DNA from: a virus
Reading direction: 5' to 3' (one strand)
Length of the DNA: 18,367 nucleotides
Virus genome (UHGV): UHGV-0120185
Each line of letters opens with the position of its first letter. The stretch's first letter is position 1. The notes beneath the pieces are model-generated. The model saw nothing but the letters and a program-made list of their open reading frames with translations. It searched no databases and was not told the DNA's origin. Of the stretch, positions 8,281 to 18,367 are shown piece by piece. Both the position numbers and the translations under genes were made by a program.

Positions 8281-8619
8281 CTATAGCTTTGATGCAGGCT
8301 GGGCTAGGTCTCCTTTGATGCCAGTGTTTACAACCTGACAAGCCTCTTTGAGTACCCAGTCAACAGCGTCTTTCCATGCTCCGGTTTCGGCTGGCGGATT
8401 CTCACGCTTTACCAGTTCATAGAATCGTACTGCTCTAACCAGTCCATCTGACGGTTTTGCCTGTAGTGCAGCCTGAGCTATGCGGTATGCCTGGAGCATA
8501 CGGGCGTCGTTGATATCCATTCCGAACGGAATTTCTGATGATTGTGATTCTGCATCTTCAAGCCTGGCAATTTCTTTACGTAAAAAGTATTTCAACTCTT
8601 GTTTTTGTTTTCTGTTCAT
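8281..8619 (-). CDS. hypothetical protein (112 aa), partner of the ClpX-zinc-ribbon-like protein
   Basis: ATG overlaps the upstream gene's stop (ATGA), followed by the terminator. No family recognised. Confidence 0.55.
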
Positions 8620-8948
8620 GCGTTTTTTCCCTTTTTGTCTGTCACTTCTCTCCTGATAATTTCATTGCACAAATCCACGCACTCATTGCAGATGCAAACA
8701 GACGGTCCGGCAATCACCTTTGTGACTTCGTACTGAGATTTATTGCAGAAGCTGCAATAAATCGTCTCCTCGCCTGAAGTCCATGTTTTGCTGGTTTCGC
8801 CAGACATCAGTTGTTTGAGGTCTTTTTCACGACGAAGAACTATCTGGCCACATTCAGCTATTTTTTGGATGTTGACATTTTCTTCTTTCGCCAGCGCTTC
8901 CATCCGCTCAATCAGTCGCTGCGCTTTTTCTCTGTCAATGTGTTGCAT
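8616..8948 (-). CDS. small protein with C-terminal ClpX N-terminal-type C4 zinc-ribbon domain
   Basis: C-terminal '[39 protein letters not shown]' versus ClpX N-domain '[39 protein letters not shown]' as recalled (about 30/40 identical, all four Zn-ligand Cys kept). N-terminal ~60 aa unrelated and helical. RBS AAGGGGG before ATG at 8948. Confidence 0.75.
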
Positions 8949-8982: not shown

Positions 8983-9006
8983 CATCAGGGCGGATGCGCC
9001 CTGATG
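8983..9006. promoter_or_regulatory. perfect 10-bp-stem hairpin (CATCAGGGCG-gatg-CGCCCTGATG) between parR and the zinc-ribbon gene
   Basis: Read directly. The arm CGCCCTGAT recurs at 9026-9034 inside the parR 3' end. No U-tract on the coding strand. Confidence 0.35.
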
Positions 9007-9011
9007 TTGTG

Positions 9012-9323
9012 TTATTCGGGAAATAACGCCCTGATATTTCCGGCCATCCGACTGGTTATCTGTGAGGTTGGTACTGGCTGTGACGCGGGGCGTTCTGTCC
9101 TGGTTTGTGTCACTGATAACGCCTCATCGTCAGCCCATGCAGCCAGTCGGTAAGCCTCTGCCGGATTCATTTTCAGAAGTGCCAGCCCGGCCAGAAAAGC
9201 CACACGTTGGCCGCTTTTGCGGGCTTCTGGTGTAAGGCTGTCCAGCCAGGTGCATGCTTCGCCTTCGTTCTTGACGGCGGCGGGCTTCAGATAGAAACTT
9301 ATCCGTCTGGTTGGTGTCGTCAT
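9012..9323 (-). CDS. parR: ParR-like centromere-binding protein (type II partition)
   Basis: 103 aa from internal Met 4 nt after the parM stop, RBS AAGGAG. 'RRISFYLKP...LDSL...RVAFLAGLALLKMNP...NIRALFPE' parallels plasmid R1 ParR as recalled. Confidence 0.7.
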   Translation of the reverse strand: MTTPTRRISFYLKPAAVKNEGEACTWLDSLTPEARKSGQRVAFLAGLALLKMNPAEAYRLAAWADDEALSVTQTRTERPASQPVPTSQITSRMAGNIRALFPE

Positions 9324-9327
9324 TGGT

Positions 9328-10287
9328 TTACTCCTTGTCCATTGCGTACAGCCCATTAACCAGAGCAAACTGTGGCACCCCGTCCGCGATGAAAGTCGCA
9401 TTAACTCCGCAGGCTTCGCGGATAGCGGGTGCCACAATCTCCGCCCCGCCACCGACAACCATCACCCGCCCGTAACCCGAAAAACCCGCCAGCGCGCGGA
9501 TCACTCGTTGTTTCAGTGTTTCTTCCTTTTCACGAATAACCGCCATCAGGCTGTCGTAATGCGCGTCATTGTGGATGTGCTGGCGCAGCCAGGCTTCATC
9601 ATGGCGATGTTCGATAATGGTATTGGCGATGTGGTGACTGGTGCGCATACCGTTAGTGGCCATCACCGACAGTACGGCATCGGCCATCAGAGAAACGCCT
9701 ACGTGTGGATCGCAAAACACCTGGCTGATACCTGCCAGTTGCCCCTGAACCTTTGCCACATCCAGCGTGGTTCCGCCCAAATCCACAATCAGCAGGGATT
9801 CAAACGGACTCATGTCAGCCAGTGCCTTAAAGCCAGCCGGAATGGATTCAGGCATAACCCGCACGTTACGGATAGTGAATGCTTCGCCGTTCTGGTACTC
9901 CACCGGGCGCATAACGTTCGCTTTTTTGCGGTTGATGTTGGCCATGTCCGGCTGTGCGTTTGTGTCGAAATACTCGCTCAGTGGCAGGGTGACAACCACA
10001 TCCACCTCCTGTGGCGTGATGCCTGATTTGACCAGCGCGTGATGAATGGCAATTACATTCACATCGCTGTACTGGTATTGCGTGTCGGTCGTCTGGACAA
10101 ATCGATCGCTGACCGGATCAAAACCATAGCGCACGCCATCAAGCATGTAGTTTGCGGGCTGCATGCCACCGAACGGCGCAGACCATTCCGATTTGAAGCT
10201 GTTCGGGCTGATGGCGTTGCGGCGTTCGCCGTTCTCAGTCCATGCCAGCTTGATGTTGGTGGAGCCGTCGTCGATACAAATTTTCAT
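9328..10287 (-). CDS. parM: ParM-like actin-type partition ATPase
   Basis: 'MKICIDDGSTNIKLAW', 'YQYSDVNVIAIHHAL', 'RKKANV', 'VMPESIPAGF', 'LLIVDLGGTTLDV', 'VMVVGGGAE', 'ALVNGLY' are collinear with plasmid R1 ParM/StbA as recalled. RBS AAGGA before ATG. Confidence 0.9.
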   Translation of the reverse strand: MKICIDDGSTNIKLAWTENGERRNAISPNSFKSEWSAPFGGMQPANYMLDGVRYGFDPVSDRFVQTTDTQYQYSDVNVIAIHHALVKSGITPQEVDVVVTLPLSEYFDTNAQPDMANINRKKANVMRPVEYQNGEAFTIRNVRVMPESIPAGFKALADMSPFESLLIVDLGGTTLDVAKVQGQLAGISQVFCDPHVGVSLMADAVLSVMATNGMRTSHHIANTIIEHRHDEAWLRQHIHNDAHYDSLMAVIREKEETLKQRVIRALAGFSGYGRVMVVGGGAEIVAPAIREACGVNATFIADGVPQFALVNGLYAMDKE

Positions 10288-10316
10288 GTCGATTTTCCTT
10301 ATGTTGATTAATTAAT

Positions 10317-10429
10317 CGTTTACGGGGTTTTTAAATCCCGTTTTTGCCTGTTTTATGCGCGCTTCATATATCGCGGCGCGTTTTTTGCTCATTTACGGGT
10401 TTTGTGAATCCCGTTTCTGTCTGTTTTTT
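10317..10429. repeat. two ~38-bp direct repeats 73 bp apart, candidate parC-like centromere/operator
   Basis: Copy 1 at 10317-10354 (cgtttacggggtttttaaatcccgtttttgcctgtttt), copy 2 at 10390-10429 (catttacgggttttgtgaatcccgtttctgtctgtttttt), ~85% identical. Each holds an ACGGG...CCCGT hairpin. Copy 1 is in the A-parM gap, copy 2 inside the last codons of A. Confidence 0.5.
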
Positions 10430-13186
10430 GTTTCCACTGGTCAGGCTACCCCGCAGCAGGTCTGCTTTGCGGCGGGCGCGTTCAGTGGTTTCACTGATTC
10501 TCTGTGCGTGCTCTGCGTCACGGATGGCGCGCAGCATGTCAGAAAGCACGGTAACGGGGGTTTTCATGGTGTTCTGGTCCTGCTGAAGTGTGGATGCCAG
10601 GCGTGCGGCGGCTTCGGGGTCTGATGCCCCCAGCTGTTCCAGATAGCCGGCGACCGGGTTATGGCGGATCTCCGTGCTGCTTACGCCGTGATTACGGCTC
10701 AGGCGCTGCCAGAGCTGCGTGATTCGGCTGTCCGGGCGGGTATCCGGTTTGCGTACAATTTCAAATCCCTGCGGTGCAATGATGCTGCCGTCAACGTACA
10801 GGCTGCCGCCCCGTAACAGGTGCTGCATCTGCTGTTCACCGATATGCAGGCCGAGAGATTCGGCAGACTCCCGCCATTCTTTAGCGAGTAATTCGTGGTT
10901 ATCAGGCAAAGGCCGCTGCTGTTTGCGGCTCTGTGTCCAGCTCTGCATTTCATCACTGCTGTTTTTTGCCTGTTTATCATGAAGCGAACGCATCAGCGCC
11001 CGGCGTTCGTGCCGTTTCAGTGAGCGCATCCATTCGTTCACTTCAACGCCATCAGGGAGCTGCGGCCACGGTGCTGGCCGTTCTTCCGGCTGTTCTGCCC
11101 CGTTGTTGTTCGTTTCCTGTACACGGGGACAGTTATTGCCACGAGTCCAAGGGGCGGCAGGGCCGCCCTGAAGGTCAAAACCATTTTCGCGGGCGCTGTC
11201 TTCCGCTTCCGGTTTACGTCTTACCAGCTTCCAGTTATCCGGATGCGTGCACACACGGGAGGATTCCCCGATGAGTGGTGACCAGATCCCGTAAATCTGT
11301 ACGCTCTGTTCGCCGTAATCGTTCAGCTCATCTGCGAGGTCGTAGGCGGTGCGAATCAGGTAGTCCTTGCGCGGAACAAGTACGCCACCCTGTTTTTCAA
11401 TGTAGGTGGCAAAACACCCGGCATCAGCGGCAGCAAGAACCGCATCCATTGCGTCATCCTTCAGCCGTTGCGGGCCTTCCGGGCTGCGTGCCATCTGGCT
11501 GGCAAGGCGGCGGAGTTCACGCCACACCTGACGGGAGGGAATGCCAAAGAACTGGAACTGGCGGACCCGGTGAAGGCGCGCCCAGCCGATGGCGCGTTCC
11601 ACGCTCTCGGCCATTGATTTTCCGGTTTCGTGGTCAACGCGTGGTTTGCCTGTTTTCGGGTCGATGCCATCCACGGCCCGGCTGTCCAGGTTTTTTCCGA
11701 TGTAGGTCGCGATATAGCTGGTTGGTGTGCCTTTTGAGCCGTCGACATACTCCGCCTTAAAGCGCGGAGTAATATCATTGCCCAGCTCGTGGCGGTCTTC
11801 CTGAATGGCAATATCGCGGGTGATGGCCACGATGCTGTCGATTTCTTCCGGATGAGCAAAGACCATCATATGCCAGTGCACGGTGCCGTCATGGTGAGGC
11901 TCCACCGTGCGGATGCCATACCAGCGAAGACCGTCGCGGTTCAGTTTTTTGCGGACCGCCGCAAAAAACGTGTTAACCAGGTAATCGCTGGAGTCGCGCA
12001 TGGTGGCCCCGTTCCATCTGGGATTCGGATGACCGTTCTCCGTTGTGGCGTGGTATTTTGACGGGCAGGTGACAGTCAGAAACACCGCTTTGTCGCCACG
12101 GGCTTCAGCCAGAAGTTCCAGCCCCTTCATGGTGGCCATCATTTCTGCCTTACGGTGAACCGGGTTACTTACTCCCGCGTAATACACCGTCTCGAGATCA
12201 ATCGTGAACCCGTCTTCATTTTCCAGCATGAAACTTTTCAGGAAATCGCGTGTTTTCTCGCGCTGTGCGCGAAACTCGCTTAACGCGTCCTGGCTCAGAT
12301 AGGGCGATGTTTTTCTGGAAACCAGACAGGCGGCGCGGAGTTGTTCTTCTCTCCACTCGCAACGTAACAGCCACAGTTTGCGTTTCCACCATTCCGCACA
12401 GGTCAGGCGAAGGATTGCGCCCGGCAGCAGTTCTGTGTCCGGTTCGTGCCTCCGGTCTTTGTCTGTTGTCAGTGCGTCATAATGCGGAGGCATGGCGTGT
12501 AAGTGTAACGCCATGCGGGCCAGCATCTGATACGCCTTCAGCGTTACATCCATGGTCAGCTCGCCATCAGTCGCGCCAAAACCATCGCAGAGTTTTTCGA
12601 AGGTGCTGCTGAACATCGCCGCCGTCATGGTGGCCAGCGTCTGTATCTGGTGTTTGTTGAGTTGCGGCAGGTAAAGCAAATCGTCCAGGCGTTCACGTCC
12701 GGCAAGGGAGCGATAACCCGATGTCAGCCAGCGGTGATCGGTGCGCTCCAGACGTTCGAATATTTTGCGCAGGGTCCCACGCGCATAGCGTTCTGCCTGC
12801 CTGGCGTTTTTTCCTTTCTGACGATCGGCTTCCTGTTTTTTGCGCAGGAAGGAGAGGTGGCGAATAAGCGGATCGCGCAGATAGGACGGCAGCAGGCGCA
12901 GTGAGGCCATGGCCTCATCTACCGCGCCGCGTGCCTGTTTTCTGGCGTCTCCTGCCAGTGTGATTGTTTTGTCCTGTTTTTCCTGTGCGTCCAGGCTTTT
13001 ATTAATCAGGTTGCCCAGCGGCGTGGCGGAGAACGCCGCATCAGCCATTTCCTGGCGGCGCTCGTTCTCTGCCCGGTAGGCATCCAGCCAGGAGGAAAGC
13101 GCGGATTCAGGAGCGGGGATCCCCGTTCCTTCACGCCCCACTGCGTGGCGCGGTTGTTGCCAGTCCCTGATGTACTCTGCCGTCAT
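10364..13186 (-). CDS. A: P2 gpA-like rolling-circle replication initiator (HUH endonuclease)
   Basis: HUH motif 'VHWHMMVF' and twin-tyrosine motif 'SYIATYIGK'. 940 aa, position between early genes and the accessory locus as in P2. Confidence 0.85.
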   Translation of the reverse strand: MTAEYIRDWQQPRHAVGREGTGIPAPESALSSWLDAYRAENERRQEMADAAFSATPLGNLINKSLDAQEKQDKTITLAGDARKQARGAVDEAMASLRLLPSYLRDPLIRHLSFLRKKQEADRQKGKNARQAERYARGTLRKIFERLERTDHRWLTSGYRSLAGRERLDDLLYLPQLNKHQIQTLATMTAAMFSSTFEKLCDGFGATDGELTMDVTLKAYQMLARMALHLHAMPPHYDALTTDKDRRHEPDTELLPGAILRLTCAEWWKRKLWLLRCEWREEQLRAACLVSRKTSPYLSQDALSEFRAQREKTRDFLKSFMLENEDGFTIDLETVYYAGVSNPVHRKAEMMATMKGLELLAEARGDKAVFLTVTCPSKYHATTENGHPNPRWNGATMRDSSDYLVNTFFAAVRKKLNRDGLRWYGIRTVEPHHDGTVHWHMMVFAHPEEIDSIVAITRDIAIQEDRHELGNDITPRFKAEYVDGSKGTPTSYIATYIGKNLDSRAVDGIDPKTGKPRVDHETGKSMAESVERAIGWARLHRVRQFQFFGIPSRQVWRELRRLASQMARSPEGPQRLKDDAMDAVLAAADAGCFATYIEKQGGVLVPRKDYLIRTAYDLADELNDYGEQSVQIYGIWSPLIGESSRVCTHPDNWKLVRRKPEAEDSARENGFDLQGGPAAPWTRGNNCPRVQETNNNGAEQPEERPAPWPQLPDGVEVNEWMRSLKRHERRALMRSLHDKQAKNSSDEMQSWTQSRKQQRPLPDNHELLAKEWRESAESLGLHIGEQQMQHLLRGGSLYVDGSIIAPQGFEIVRKPDTRPDSRITQLWQRLSRNHGVSSTEIRHNPVAGYLEQLGASDPEAAARLASTLQQDQNTMKTPVTVLSDMLRAIRDAEHAQRISETTERARRKADLLRGSLTSGNKKQTETGFTKPVNEQKTRRDI

Positions 13187-16179: not shown

Positions 16180-16830
16180 ATGGCCGTCAACTCAAACGGT
16201 TCAAACAATCGCGTTGCTGGGCGTGATTTTCACGAAAAGAATATTCAGATAGAGCGATATGATGGTTCTCAGACCGTCAATATCGCAATCCCTTCGAATA
16301 ATGATGATGACGATCGCCCTTTGCTTAAGGCTCAGCGTAAGGAGCTAAATAGCTTGGTTGCTGCTATTGCAGAAGCTAGCAATACTGAAGCGTTTATTAT
16401 TTGGCAAAAAGTACATGCGGAGATTGGTGTAGCTGGTATTGATGATATGACAGTAAATCAATATAAAACAGCGGAGAGTTTTCTGCATGCAATGCTTGAG
16501 CGATGTAAAGATCATGATGCCTGTAAGGCTCTTGTAAGTTTATTACTACGTAACAGTGAAGACTGTGGACTTCGACAAAAACTTCTGCGGTATTGCCATA
16601 TCAATTTCGGTACAGGACGTTTAAACGATCTTACTCGTTCTCAGTTACAGTCTGCATTGTCGTGGTTAGAGCAACAATCGGCATCAAGCCACACAGAGAG
16701 TTCGACCTTACCAGAAGTCCGACTTCGTGCTTCAGAATTAATCCGACTTTATCCAAAAGAAATAATATTCTTTATCTGCGTAGGGGTTTTGGTAGGCGGT
16801 GTCATTTCTAGGGCGTTTTTTAATTTGTAA
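16180..16830 (+). CDS. tail-anchored membrane protein of unknown function (216 aa), lysogeny-operon moron
   Basis: Strong RBS GGGAGG before ATG. Single C-terminal TM 'IIFFICVGVLVGGVISRAFF'; acidic DDDD stretch. N-terminus repeats the repressor C-terminal motif. AT-rich relative to the backbone. Confidence 0.65.
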   Translation: MAVNSNGSNNRVAGRDFHEKNIQIERYDGSQTVNIAIPSNNDDDDRPLLKAQRKELNSLVAAIAEASNTEAFIIWQKVHAEIGVAGIDDMTVNQYKTAESFLHAMLERCKDHDACKALVSLLLRNSEDCGLRQKLLRYCHINFGTGRLNDLTRSQLQSALSWLEQQSASSHTESSTLPEVRLRASELIRLYPKEIIFFICVGVLVGGVISRAFFNL

Positions 16831-16859
16831 TCTTACTTGAGCTAAATTGAGGTAATGAT

Positions 16860-17207
16860 ATGAAAGTAAAAAAGGTTCAACTATTAGTTACTTTTTTATC
16901 TATGTTTTCTTTTTCCGCCGTCGCAATGCCTTTTAAAACTATTGAACGTGAGAGTTTCAATGGGGTATGGCCATTTAATACTGATGAGGTTCAATTACAG
17001 TGTCTTGATGGTAATCCTTATGTGATGAATTTTGACGATAATAAGTTATATGCACTTACAGGTTTGGCTCGAATAAAAGGTAAAACATTTGGTGCGTTAC
17101 CGTTAGATAACAATAATCCATTTTGGCTAGATAATGATGCCGCCCCAGGGTTAAAAAAGAGTCTGGGGGATGTCACTAAGGCTGCATTTGATTTATGTGA
17201 TAAGTAA
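16860..17207 (+). CDS. secreted/periplasmic small protein of unknown function (115 aa), lysogeny-operon moron
   Basis: Signal peptide 'MKVKKVQLLVTFLSMFSFSAVA' with an AVA cleavage site; two Cys in the mature part. RBS GAGGT. Very AT-rich. Confidence 0.65.
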   Translation: MKVKKVQLLVTFLSMFSFSAVAMPFKTIERESFNGVWPFNTDEVQLQCLDGNPYVMNFDDNKLYALTGLARIKGKTFGALPLDNNNPFWLDNDAAPGLKKSLGDVTKAAFDLCDK

Positions 17208-17212
17208 CTAAA

Positions 17213-18214
17213 ATGTCGGTTCGTAAGATTCCATCAGGTAAATGGCTTTGCGAATGTTATCCCTACGGGGCATCGGGAAAACGCATTCGTAAACAGTTTG
17301 CGACAAAAAGTGAGGCGCTCTCTTATGAGCGCCGTTTAATGAATAGTAGAGTTGGAGACGAGTTTCAAGATGGTTCTGGTCCTCGTCTTTCTGAGTTGAT
17401 TGCTCGTTGGTTTGAGATGTACGGTAAAACCTTGTCCTCTGGTGCAGAGCGCAAAGTCAAACTTGAGGCGATTTGTTCCAGGCTGGGAGATCCATTTGCT
17501 TCTCAGTTTGACAAAAATATGTTTGCTACTTATCGGGAAAGAAGGCTATCAGGAGAATGGAATCCCAAGGGGAAGAAAAAACTTAGTGAAGCAACCGTTA
17601 ATCGCGAGCAGTCATATCTACATGCTGTTTTTGCCGAACTGAAGCGCCTTGGGGAGTGGTCTGGTGAAAACCCCCTGACTGGTATTCGCAAGTTTCGTGA
17701 GGAAGAAAAGGAACTGGCGTTTCTGTATGTAGATGAGATTGAACGCCTTCTGATTGCGTGTGATGAGTCACGGAATAAAGATTTGGGGGTTGTTGTCCGT
17801 ATTGGGCTTGCGACGGGTGCTCGGTGGAGTGAAGCAGAAGGATTAAAGCAATCTCAAGTACTGCCCGGTCGAATCACATTTGTTAAAACTAAAGGAAAGA
17901 AGAACCGCACTGTACCGATTTCACCTCAATTGCAGGCTATGCTTCCTAAAAAACGAGGAGCGCTATTTTCACCATGTTATGAGGCTTTTGACGCTGCAAT
18001 TAAGAGAGCGAAGATCGAGCTTCCTGATGGGCAATTAACTCATGTGCTACGTCACACGTTTGCCAGTCATTTTATGATGCGGGGCGGAAATATTCTTGTG
18101 TTGCAAAAAATACTGGGGCATAGCGATATAAAAATGACTATGCGTTATGCGCATTTTGCTCCAGGTCATTTAGAGGCTGCTGTTGAATTGAACCCTTTTG
18201 ACAATAGAGGGTAA
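17213..18214 (+). CDS. int: P2-type tyrosine integrase
   Basis: 'LATGARWSEA', 'FVKTKGKKNRTVPIS', 'HVLRHTFASHFMMRGGNILVLQKILGHSDIKMTMRYAHFAP', 'LNP' match the P2 Int catalytic region as recalled (R, H-x-x-R, Y). Confidence 0.92.
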   Translation: MSVRKIPSGKWLCECYPYGASGKRIRKQFATKSEALSYERRLMNSRVGDEFQDGSGPRLSELIARWFEMYGKTLSSGAERKVKLEAICSRLGDPFASQFDKNMFATYRERRLSGEWNPKGKKKLSEATVNREQSYLHAVFAELKRLGEWSGENPLTGIRKFREEEKELAFLYVDEIERLLIACDESRNKDLGVVVRIGLATGARWSEAEGLKQSQVLPGRITFVKTKGKKNRTVPISPQLQAMLPKKRGALFSPCYEAFDAAIKRAKIELPDGQLTHVLRHTFASHFMMRGGNILVLQKILGHSDIKMTMRYAHFAPGHLEAAVELNPFDNRG

Positions 18215-18320: not shown

Positions 18321-18367
18321 TTTAAAATCCCTCGGCGTTCGCGCTGTGCGGGTTCAAGTCCCGCTCC
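18321..18367 (+). other. att core: 3' part of a class II tRNA-Leu (anticodon UAA, leuZ-like), truncated copy continuing past the window end
   Basis: TTTAAAATCCCTCGGCGTTCGCGCTGTGCGGGTTCAAGTCCCGCTCC matches the anticodon-loop-to-T-arm portion of enterobacterial tRNA-Leu(UAA) as recalled. T-arm GCGGG-TTCAAGT-CCCGC and long variable arm are visible. Upstream sequence cannot form the anticodon stem or acceptor/D arms, so this is a partial copy. Confidence 0.6.

Follow-up and report, generated by a model that had tools for sequence, protein, structure and literature searches.

In the type II partition system of plasmid R1, paired DNA molecules are driven apart by ParM filaments that carry complexes of ParR and parC as caps, and partition systems are found in phages as well, P1 being a well-known type of phage-plasmid that has one. 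The parC region of R1 is made of two blocks of five 11-bp iterons around a promoter (PMC2241845). Integrative elements with actin-type modules are also known: srpMRC of the SXT/R391 integrative and conjugative elements (ICEs) is expressed only with the excision functions and stabilizes the transient, excised form that replicates by rolling circle (PMC4489591), and AlpC and AlpA of prophage CGP3 are induced early, tether the circular form of the phage DNA to filaments and are required for it to replicate efficiently (PMC4446434). Here we describe a parM-parR cassette of the R1 family in an integrated P2-like prophage, found in an 18,367-nt stretch of DNA (UHGV virus genome UHGV-0120185) that we refer to as the window and that is chromosomal DNA of E. 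coli O111:H21 strain 15A (NZ_CP077477.1), beside yecA. In our preferred explanation, to which we give a probability of roughly 0.6, the cassette would be a phage-adapted type II (ParMRC-like) module, part of the early operon for replication in P88-like (Xuanwuvirus) phages and their relatives in the P2 family, and would act on transient circular DNA.

Both the observation and the main hypothesis so far offered for it are already on record. Pfeifer et al. (2021) noted partition genes in integrated P88 and suggested episomal as well as integrative states, and a phage-plasmid screen listed P88 owing to its partition genes and replication protein (PMC7969092). The gene appears only as "fitness" cargo in the phiSM paper (PMC6456863) and goes without mention in the P88 paper (PMC5285337), and we found no functional study of P88-type parMR in the searchable literature; an mSphere paper on ST95 that matched "ParMRC" and "prophage" concerns plasmid pUTI89 and was set aside as irrelevant. 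What we add is the linkage of the module to the replication gene gpA across five genera, a phage-specific ParM clade and the pattern of selection, together with a two-palindrome candidate centromere over the end of gpA, an apparent lack of a promoter of its own, and numbers on integration versus the episomal state.

The partition proteins and their candidate DNA sites

An initial annotation, made from the sequence, had described an intact ParM/ParR cassette at positions 9012-10287, collinear with StbA/StbB of R1 and lying between gpA and a cargo region. These coordinates proved exact (Table 1), and the order, parM followed after a 4-nt gap by parR, is identical to that of an R1-type plasmid locus that we retrieved for comparison. 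Searches with profile hidden Markov models, which the annotation had proposed as a check, placed both proteins in the expected families. ParM (319 aa) matched the Pfam domains StbA_N (2.7e-82) and ParM C-terminal domain (1e-68), and the structure of R1 ParM (PDB 1mwk) matched its residues 2-316 (E 1.2e-92). The phosphate- and adenosine-binding motifs DDGSTN, PESIPAG, DLGGTTLD and GGGAE are kept in the alignment with R1 ParM, such that the protein has the intact nucleotide-binding motifs of a type II ParM ATPase. All of its matches to ParM models of NCBIfam were sub-threshold. ParR (103 aa), the small StbB/ParR-family adaptor of a type II system, matched PF10784 (Plasmid_stab_B, the StbB/ParR family) at 4.4e-24, above the gathering score, and was covered end to end by PHROG 2515, "partition protein" (6e-58). 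A PDB sequence search with ParR gave no meaningful match to any solved ParR. In a low-confidence AlphaFold2 model of the monomer (mean pLDDT 55), the helices fit a ribbon-helix-helix layout and the N-terminal strand was not modeled.

We scanned IMG/VR with the ParM alignment and kept 80 loci; every ParM among them is at least 99% identical, and the set serves for statistics of variation, not for breadth. Full-length parM was present in 79 of these 80 viral-contig copies, and among nine copies compared the ratio of nonsynonymous to synonymous substitution rates (dN/dS) was 0.02-0.14 at a dS of at most 0.19. Clusters of full-length ParM held 1308 and 4287 member sequences, and the protein search also returned some truncated copies. 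Thus, parM is under strong purifying selection and is kept intact despite its chromosomal residence.

ParR varies in a different manner. Many ParR alleles are only ~50% identical, whereas the ParMs of the same 80 loci are nearly the same, and this variation is confined to a linker at residues ~64-95 (47 distinct sequences). The N-terminal segment (MTTPTRRISFYLKP..., RRISFYLKP) and the C-terminal tip N-I-x-x-(L/F)-F-P (NIxxLFPE) are invariant in this set, and RRISFYLKP and the N..xLF tip are also found in plasmid ParRs. The tip aligns with the KKNAMKLIN tail of R1-type ParR, which we take to be the ParM-binding helix. Such a pattern, with a putative DNA-reading end and a putative motor-binding end joined by a probably disordered linker, would be expected of a working adaptor. 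At least two allele types at the ParR N-terminus (NEGEACAWLDSLTPEARKSGQRVAF... and SEQEACNYLDSLPASERSRAQRAAF...) occur paired with the same DNA sites.

The initial annotation had also pointed to repeats at 10300-10440, and these are real: parM is preceded by a pair of 42-nt direct repeats that share 83% identity and start 73 bp apart. The core of each is a 25-nt near-palindrome, AAACGGGAYTnnnRAAnCCCGTAAA, which occurs only at these two places both in the window and in a complete 34-kb related phage, where none would be expected by chance. Among the 56 distinct sequences from 81 loci, the GGGAT...ATCC core hardly varies, and common variation falls mostly in the 4-nt center and adjacent positions; one frequent variant of the proximal site alters an arm base (TCCCGT to TCCTGT), and central variants of the distal site change gpA amino acids. 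The layout recurs in a Plesiomonas P2-like prophage, with two repeats 72 bp apart, the first of them across the gpA stop, and Serratia and Enterobacter phages have inverted 14-20-nt arms that contain the CAAAAACGGGAAC motif. The half-site AAWCCC recurs in the direct 11-bp iterons of R1-type parC. From these features of sequence and position, the two palindromes are probable ParR sites and would form the two halves of the candidate centromere.

The gpA gene, on the same strand, ends 76 nt before parM starts. Its Phage_GPA domain occupies only residues 179-503 of the 940 aa (relatives have 785-907 aa), and the codons for its long C-terminal part terminate within the distal palindrome, such that coding sequence and putative centromere overlap. 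Between gpA and parM, a consensus scan of the window detected neither a sigma-70 promoter nor a terminator on the sense strand, and in the Plesiomonas and Serratia relatives it likewise found no usable promoter and no sense terminator there, although a weak or activator-dependent promoter would escape so simple a scan. A weak TTTAAA-17-ATTAAT match seen by eye in the window is not conserved in the relatives. The simplest reading is that transcription of the early operon would run on into parMR, which would then be made along with the replication proteins and would be off in a repressed prophage.

Distribution, descent and genomic context

The cassette is widespread in the chromosomes of E. coli. 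Over its whole length, sites included, it is 98% nucleotide-identical to phage P88 (Xuanwuvirus) and occupies the same position there; with its flanks it is 94-98% identical to P88, PhiR44_2, P884B11, Citrobacter phiSM and other Xuanwuvirus/Peduoviridae, in which ParM and a partition protein are annotated. Among 5426 complete E. coli genomes, 1304 (24%) carry the cassette, at 1452 places, with up to three copies coexisting in one genome; 1450 of these copies are chromosomal and two are on plasmid records. The gpA type of the window was found in 1445 E. coli genomes, compared to the 1304 with the cassette, and prophage Sp13 of E. coli O157:H7 Sakai carries both. The initial annotation had called a partition cassette unexpected in an element with a tyrosine integrase and a tRNA att core. 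The integrase and the att core were both borne out (Table 1), but the surprise was overstated, given the annotated copies in P88, phiSM and Sp13, their frequency in E. coli, the dedicated PHROGs families for both ParM and ParR (691 and 2515), and the precedents of srpMRC and AlpAC.

We examined how this ParM relates to those of plasmids. The ParM family is overwhelmingly plasmid-borne, with at least 5000 plasmid records. In PLSDB, however, the only matches to the window ParM above 60% are copies of the phage itself, and thousands of plasmid ParMs are at most 52% identical; in a phage collection, relatives were found only in P88-like phages (at least 95% aa identity) and in the P1-like phage-plasmid D6 (48%). 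A scan of genome contigs with the single ParM returned near-identical copies only (E. albertii, Salmonella and a "Vagococcus" assembly). The last is a 226-kb contig of "Vagococcus sp. WN89Y" (NZ_JBQPOM010000071.1) with a cassette 97% identical to that of E. coli, which is almost certainly contamination or mis-binned enterobacterial DNA. A search of 5.8 billion proteins yielded a thin series of intermediates, whose contigs we inspected. ParMs that are 63% (Plesiomonas), 62% (Hafnia), 59% (Serratia) and 54% (Enterobacter ludwigii) identical lie in P2-like prophages, and all four prophages have the order gpA, zero to two small genes, parM, a PF10784 parR, variable cargo and portal gene. Five homologs at 49-53% sit in an ICE, in an integrated plasmid, in plasmids with Rep3 and ParA, and in other non-P2 contexts. 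In a neighbor-joining tree of 107 full-length ParMs, those from phage contexts formed a clade of 16 that included none of the seven context-checked plasmid or ICE ParMs. The cargo beside the module differs between P88, 520873, phiSM and 569R5. Because of the linkage to gpA across genera, the separate ParM clade and the numbers of E. coli genomes with this gpA type and with the cassette, we conclude from these comparisons of sequence and gene order that the module is an old, lineage-specific companion of gpA and not part of the interchangeable cargo next to it. Accordingly, the suggestion in the initial annotation of a plasmid-derived mosaic stands only for the deep past; a recent origin of that kind is contradicted by the distance of plasmid ParMs (at most 52-53% identical) and by a phage clade that is always beside gpA.

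The element has the features of one that is normally integrated, namely an integrase, a tRNA-Leu att core and a chromosomal context, and it also encodes a repressor-like helix-turn-helix protein. ARAGORN found no complete tRNA in the window, and Rfam found no RNA family in it. The strain 15A chromosome (NZ_CP077477.1, ~1-61 kb) matches the cassette at three places, the second copy having a truncated gpA that abuts pgsA and a tRNA Gly-Cys-Leu cluster, which suggests tandem or rearranged P88-like prophages at the leuZ site.

On the 3' side of parR, there is a gene for a ClpX-zinc-finger protein, an open reading frame of 112 aa, a non-coding stretch, and then the portal and terminase genes. The zinc-finger protein (8616-8948, minus strand; 110 aa) has an uncharacterized N-terminal half and a ClpX-type C4 zinc finger (PF06689, 2.9e-16), without the ClpX ATPase, and might mimic or titrate ClpX adaptor binding. 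Its gene, which adjoins parR, is present in P88; other P88-like phages have other cargo instead. Similarity to other P88-like phages breaks near the hairpin that follows parR (Table 1) or inside parR. This strong hairpin probably halts transcription that runs on from the portal/terminase operon, and it is also the probable boundary at which the cargo region recombines. PADLOC gave no match for the module or its neighbors, and a reading of the module as a defense system was therefore dropped. At the other end of the element, between the helix-turn-helix gene and the integrase (16180-17207, plus strand), are genes for a 216-aa membrane protein (PHROG 5825) and a 115-aa DUF2511 protein, which are likely morons expressed during lysogeny.

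Table 1. Positions of the partition module, its candidate sites and other features of the window
Feature	Coordinates	Strand	Description
parM	9328..10287	-	319-aa actin-fold segregation ATPase; Pfam and PDB matches, PHROG 691
parR (stbB)	9012..9323 (ATG at 9323, stop at 9012)	-	103-aa predicted centromere-binding adaptor; PF10784, PHROG 2515
Proximal candidate ParR site (parC half B)	10316..10357	-	42-nt repeat; palindromic core 10319-10343 (AAACGGGATTTAAAAACCCCGTAAA); ~30 nt upstream of parM start
Distal candidate ParR site (parC half A)	10389..10430	-	42-nt repeat; core 10392-10416 (AAACGGGATTCACAAAACCCGTAAA); inside last gpA codons
gpA	10364..13186	-	940-aa rolling-circle replication endonuclease; Phage_GPA 2.1e-130
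Hairpin	8983..9006	not applicable	10-bp GC-rich stem (CATCAGGGCGGATGCGCCCTGATG) directly 3' of parR stop; T-run only on + strand, terminator-like there
Tyrosine integrase	17213..18214	+	Int_N 5e-32, Phage_integrase 2.5e-22
att core	18321..18367	+	Last 47 nt, equal to positions 33-79 (3' part) of a tRNA-Leu gene on the same chromosome

Proposed role and its alternatives

We propose that the module serves in the segregation of transient phage circles. In this scheme, the early promoter would fire after infection or after prophage induction and excision, and the operon ending in gpA-parM-parR would be transcribed. The gpA protein would start rolling-circle replication and give rise to monomeric circles, ParR would bind the two palindromic sites at the gpA/parM junction, and ParM-ATP filaments, captured by the ParR-DNA complexes, would push sister phage circles apart. 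Two benefits might follow: templates for replication or packaging would be distributed over the whole of a cell that often filaments, and if the cell divided before lysis or before (re)integration, each daughter would receive a copy. In the integrated, repressed prophage the module would be silent. We infer the binding of ParR to the repeats, the polymerization of ParM, the timing of expression and an effect on fitness, and we propose this course of events because the anatomy of the locus matches that of srpMRC and AlpAC, and because of the mechanism known for R1.

Several points weigh against a role in segregating transient circles. Partition would not be of much obvious use in a lytic cycle that lasts tens of minutes, and to our knowledge P2 and 186 manage without such a module. 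Tandem Repeats Finder detected no tandem iteron array upstream of parM, where R1 has ten 11-bp iterons, and with only two palindromic sites the region may be an operator and not a full centromere. The palindromes with their T-runs score like weak intrinsic terminators on the plus strand, and they may not be ParR sites at all. The argument from read-through depends on the simple consensus scan for promoters described above. Moreover, one complete circular copy of such a phage has been deposited as a plasmid, which brings us to the first of the alternatives.

If these phages were facultative plasmid prophages, lysogeny would be established either by integration or as a low-copy episome that is replicated by gpA and partitioned by ParMRC, much as Pfeifer et al. 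(2021) suggested and in keeping with the listing of P88 in the phage-plasmid screen (PMC7969092). There is precedent in Burkholderia KS14, a P2-like phage with a plasmid prophage (PMC3091744), and the deposited circle, pZ1323PEC0009-2 (NZ_CP148288.1), is a complete P88-like genome of 34,461 bp. However, a comparison over 24.9 kb found the circle 100% identical to a prophage in the chromosome of a sister isolate (NZ_CP148378.1), and it may be an assembled form of excised or replicating phage. The "plasmid" comes from a cat isolate and its integrated counterpart from a human isolate of the same study series. The other members of the seven PLSDB hits are a linear, IS1-disrupted prophage fragment from Shigella boydii or very large records; we rejected the S. 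boydii "plasmid" copy as a linear, IS1-riddled, degraded prophage contig. Moreover, chromosomal residence of all but two of the 1452 copies in complete E. coli genomes speaks against an episomal state, and a contiguous attP junction (1.56-kb query) was found in none of the 5426 genomes, although a circular record opened exactly at the junction would escape this search. The only replication protein that we found is gpA, an HUH rolling-circle protein of a repressor-controlled early operon, without any plasmid-type initiator, whereas KS14 instead has RepB and ParA and no gpA (PMC3091744). The consensus scan likewise turned up no promoter from which parMR could be expressed on its own. Thus, we found neither the extrachromosomal maintenance nor the plasmid-type initiator that mark a phage-plasmid, nor the carriage on a low-copy plasmid expected of a type II system, and the idea in the initial annotation that the element might also persist as a plasmid finds almost no support. 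We consider it unlikely that the P88-like phages, which are present in about one-quarter of E. coli genomes, have a second carrier mode in which the excised genome persists for many generations as a gpA-replicated, ParMRC-partitioned episome. Were there such a mode, these would be integrative phage-plasmids on a rolling-circle replicon, with a minimal two-palindrome centromere inside the end of the replication gene.

A second possibility is that the module works in the integrated prophage, with ParR regulating gpA or the early region or with ParMRC positioning the chromosomal locus, or else that the repeats are terminators or replication signals and not ParR sites. The repeats do overlap the 3' end of gpA, they have the look of a hairpin with a T-run on the plus strand, antisense hairpins of a similar kind are present in the Serratia relative, and plasmid ParRs also act as autorepressors (PMC2241845). 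We gave less weight to terminators because the palindromes, when folded as RNA, give weak hairpins (-6 to -12 kcal/mol, z of -0.5 to -1.6, not better than shuffled sequences); in addition, the Plesiomonas sites are not terminator-like, although they keep the two-site layout, and Rfam was blank. Furthermore, these roles leave unexplained the retention of a full-length and highly conserved ParM motor, and we regard them as quite improbable.

The initial annotation had also considered incompatibility-based exclusion, in which the ParR of the prophage or its chromosomal parC copy would disturb the partition of incoming plasmids or phages with the same centromere. The module adjoins the cargo region between parR and the portal gene, and the corresponding position in P2 is where the exclusion genes old and tin reside. 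For ParMRC systems, incompatibility through the centromere is established, among others in C. perfringens plasmids (PMC9426499). Against this reading, a megablast search of PLSDB met the cassette and its sites only on records that are copies of the phage. Even the closest ParMs from plasmids do not exceed 52% identity, two aligned non-phage ParRs (from an ICE and an integrated plasmid) are 26-29% identical, and R1-type parC is built differently. Moreover, the same cassette with its sites occurs up to three times per genome, PADLOC gave no match, and the module is conserved and linked to gpA, unlike the neighboring cargo. An exclusion device is thus very unlikely. Finally, the module might be a neutral or decaying passenger of plasmid origin, recently acquired as a mosaic piece and without a role in the phage. 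This is scarcely credible and is largely refuted already by the data on selection and synteny. The plasmid-borne nature of the family, the adjoining recombination-prone cargo and some truncated copies would suit it, but parM is under purifying selection and almost always intact, and the cis sites are conserved. Moreover, plasmid ParMs stop at 53% identity and phage ParMs begin at 54%, and this divide falls together with a monophyletic phage clade that occupies the same position in five genera.

If a role in segregating transient circles is correct, the module would be the first counterpart in an enterobacterial tailed phage of AlpAC of CGP3 and srpMRC of SXT, and actin-type partition would be an accessory general to rolling-circle replicons whose extrachromosomal state is only a passing one. 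There is also a consequence for classification: on the basis of partition genes alone, pipelines call P88-like prophages phage-plasmids, yet the genomes show them overwhelmingly integrated. Since these phages are common (Sp13 in E. coli O157, P88 in enterotoxigenic E. coli, phiSM in Citrobacter) and genetically tractable, the question should be cheap to settle.

Comparison with known systems

The module resembles the parMRC (stbAB) system of R1/R100 in many respects: the match of ParM at 1e-92 with its ATPase motifs, a ParR of the same Pfam family, the near-zero gap between parM and parR, and a bipartite upstream cis region whose two repeat blocks are ~31 bp apart here and 39 bp apart in R1, with a half-site, AAWCCC, that resembles the R1-type iteron core. 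It differs in that it resides on an integrated prophage, has a ParM that shares ~47-52% identity with those of plasmids and groups in a clade of its own, and has a ParR of 103 aa compared to 117. Furthermore, each block is a single 25-nt palindrome within a 42-nt repeat here, in contrast to the five direct 11-bp iterons of an R1 block; there is no consensus promoter between the blocks, and the distal block lies inside the coding end of gpA.

The phage-plasmids D6 and KS14 are, like the P88-like phages, temperate tailed phages with plasmid-type partition genes; the ParM of D6 is 48% identical, and KS14 shares P2-like virion genes (PMC3091744). In contrast, KS14 has a RepB initiator and is extrachromosomal, while the element described here, chromosomal in >99% of records, carries gpA only, besides an integrase and a tRNA att site.

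Closer in lifestyle is srpMRC of SXT/R391, which likewise combines an actin-type ATPase, a small adaptor and upstream repeats in an integrated tyrosine-integrase element that excises and replicates by an HUH rolling-circle mechanism. The proteins are less alike: SrpM is distant from R1 ParM and SrpR has no recognizable ParR domain, whereas both proteins here are clearly of the R1 family. In addition, the host of srpMRC is a conjugative element and not a phage, and a function has been demonstrated for srpMRC. The alpAC-alpS system of the Corynebacterium glutamicum prophage CGP3 is similar in that an integrated prophage has an actin-like filament former and an adaptor that binds upstream repeats; it belongs to another actin-like subfamily, has alpA before alpC and resides in an actinobacterial host. 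The cassettes of P88/Xuanwuvirus, phiSM and Sakai Sp13 show no material difference from that of the window, as only the ParR linker and the downstream cargo vary between copies.

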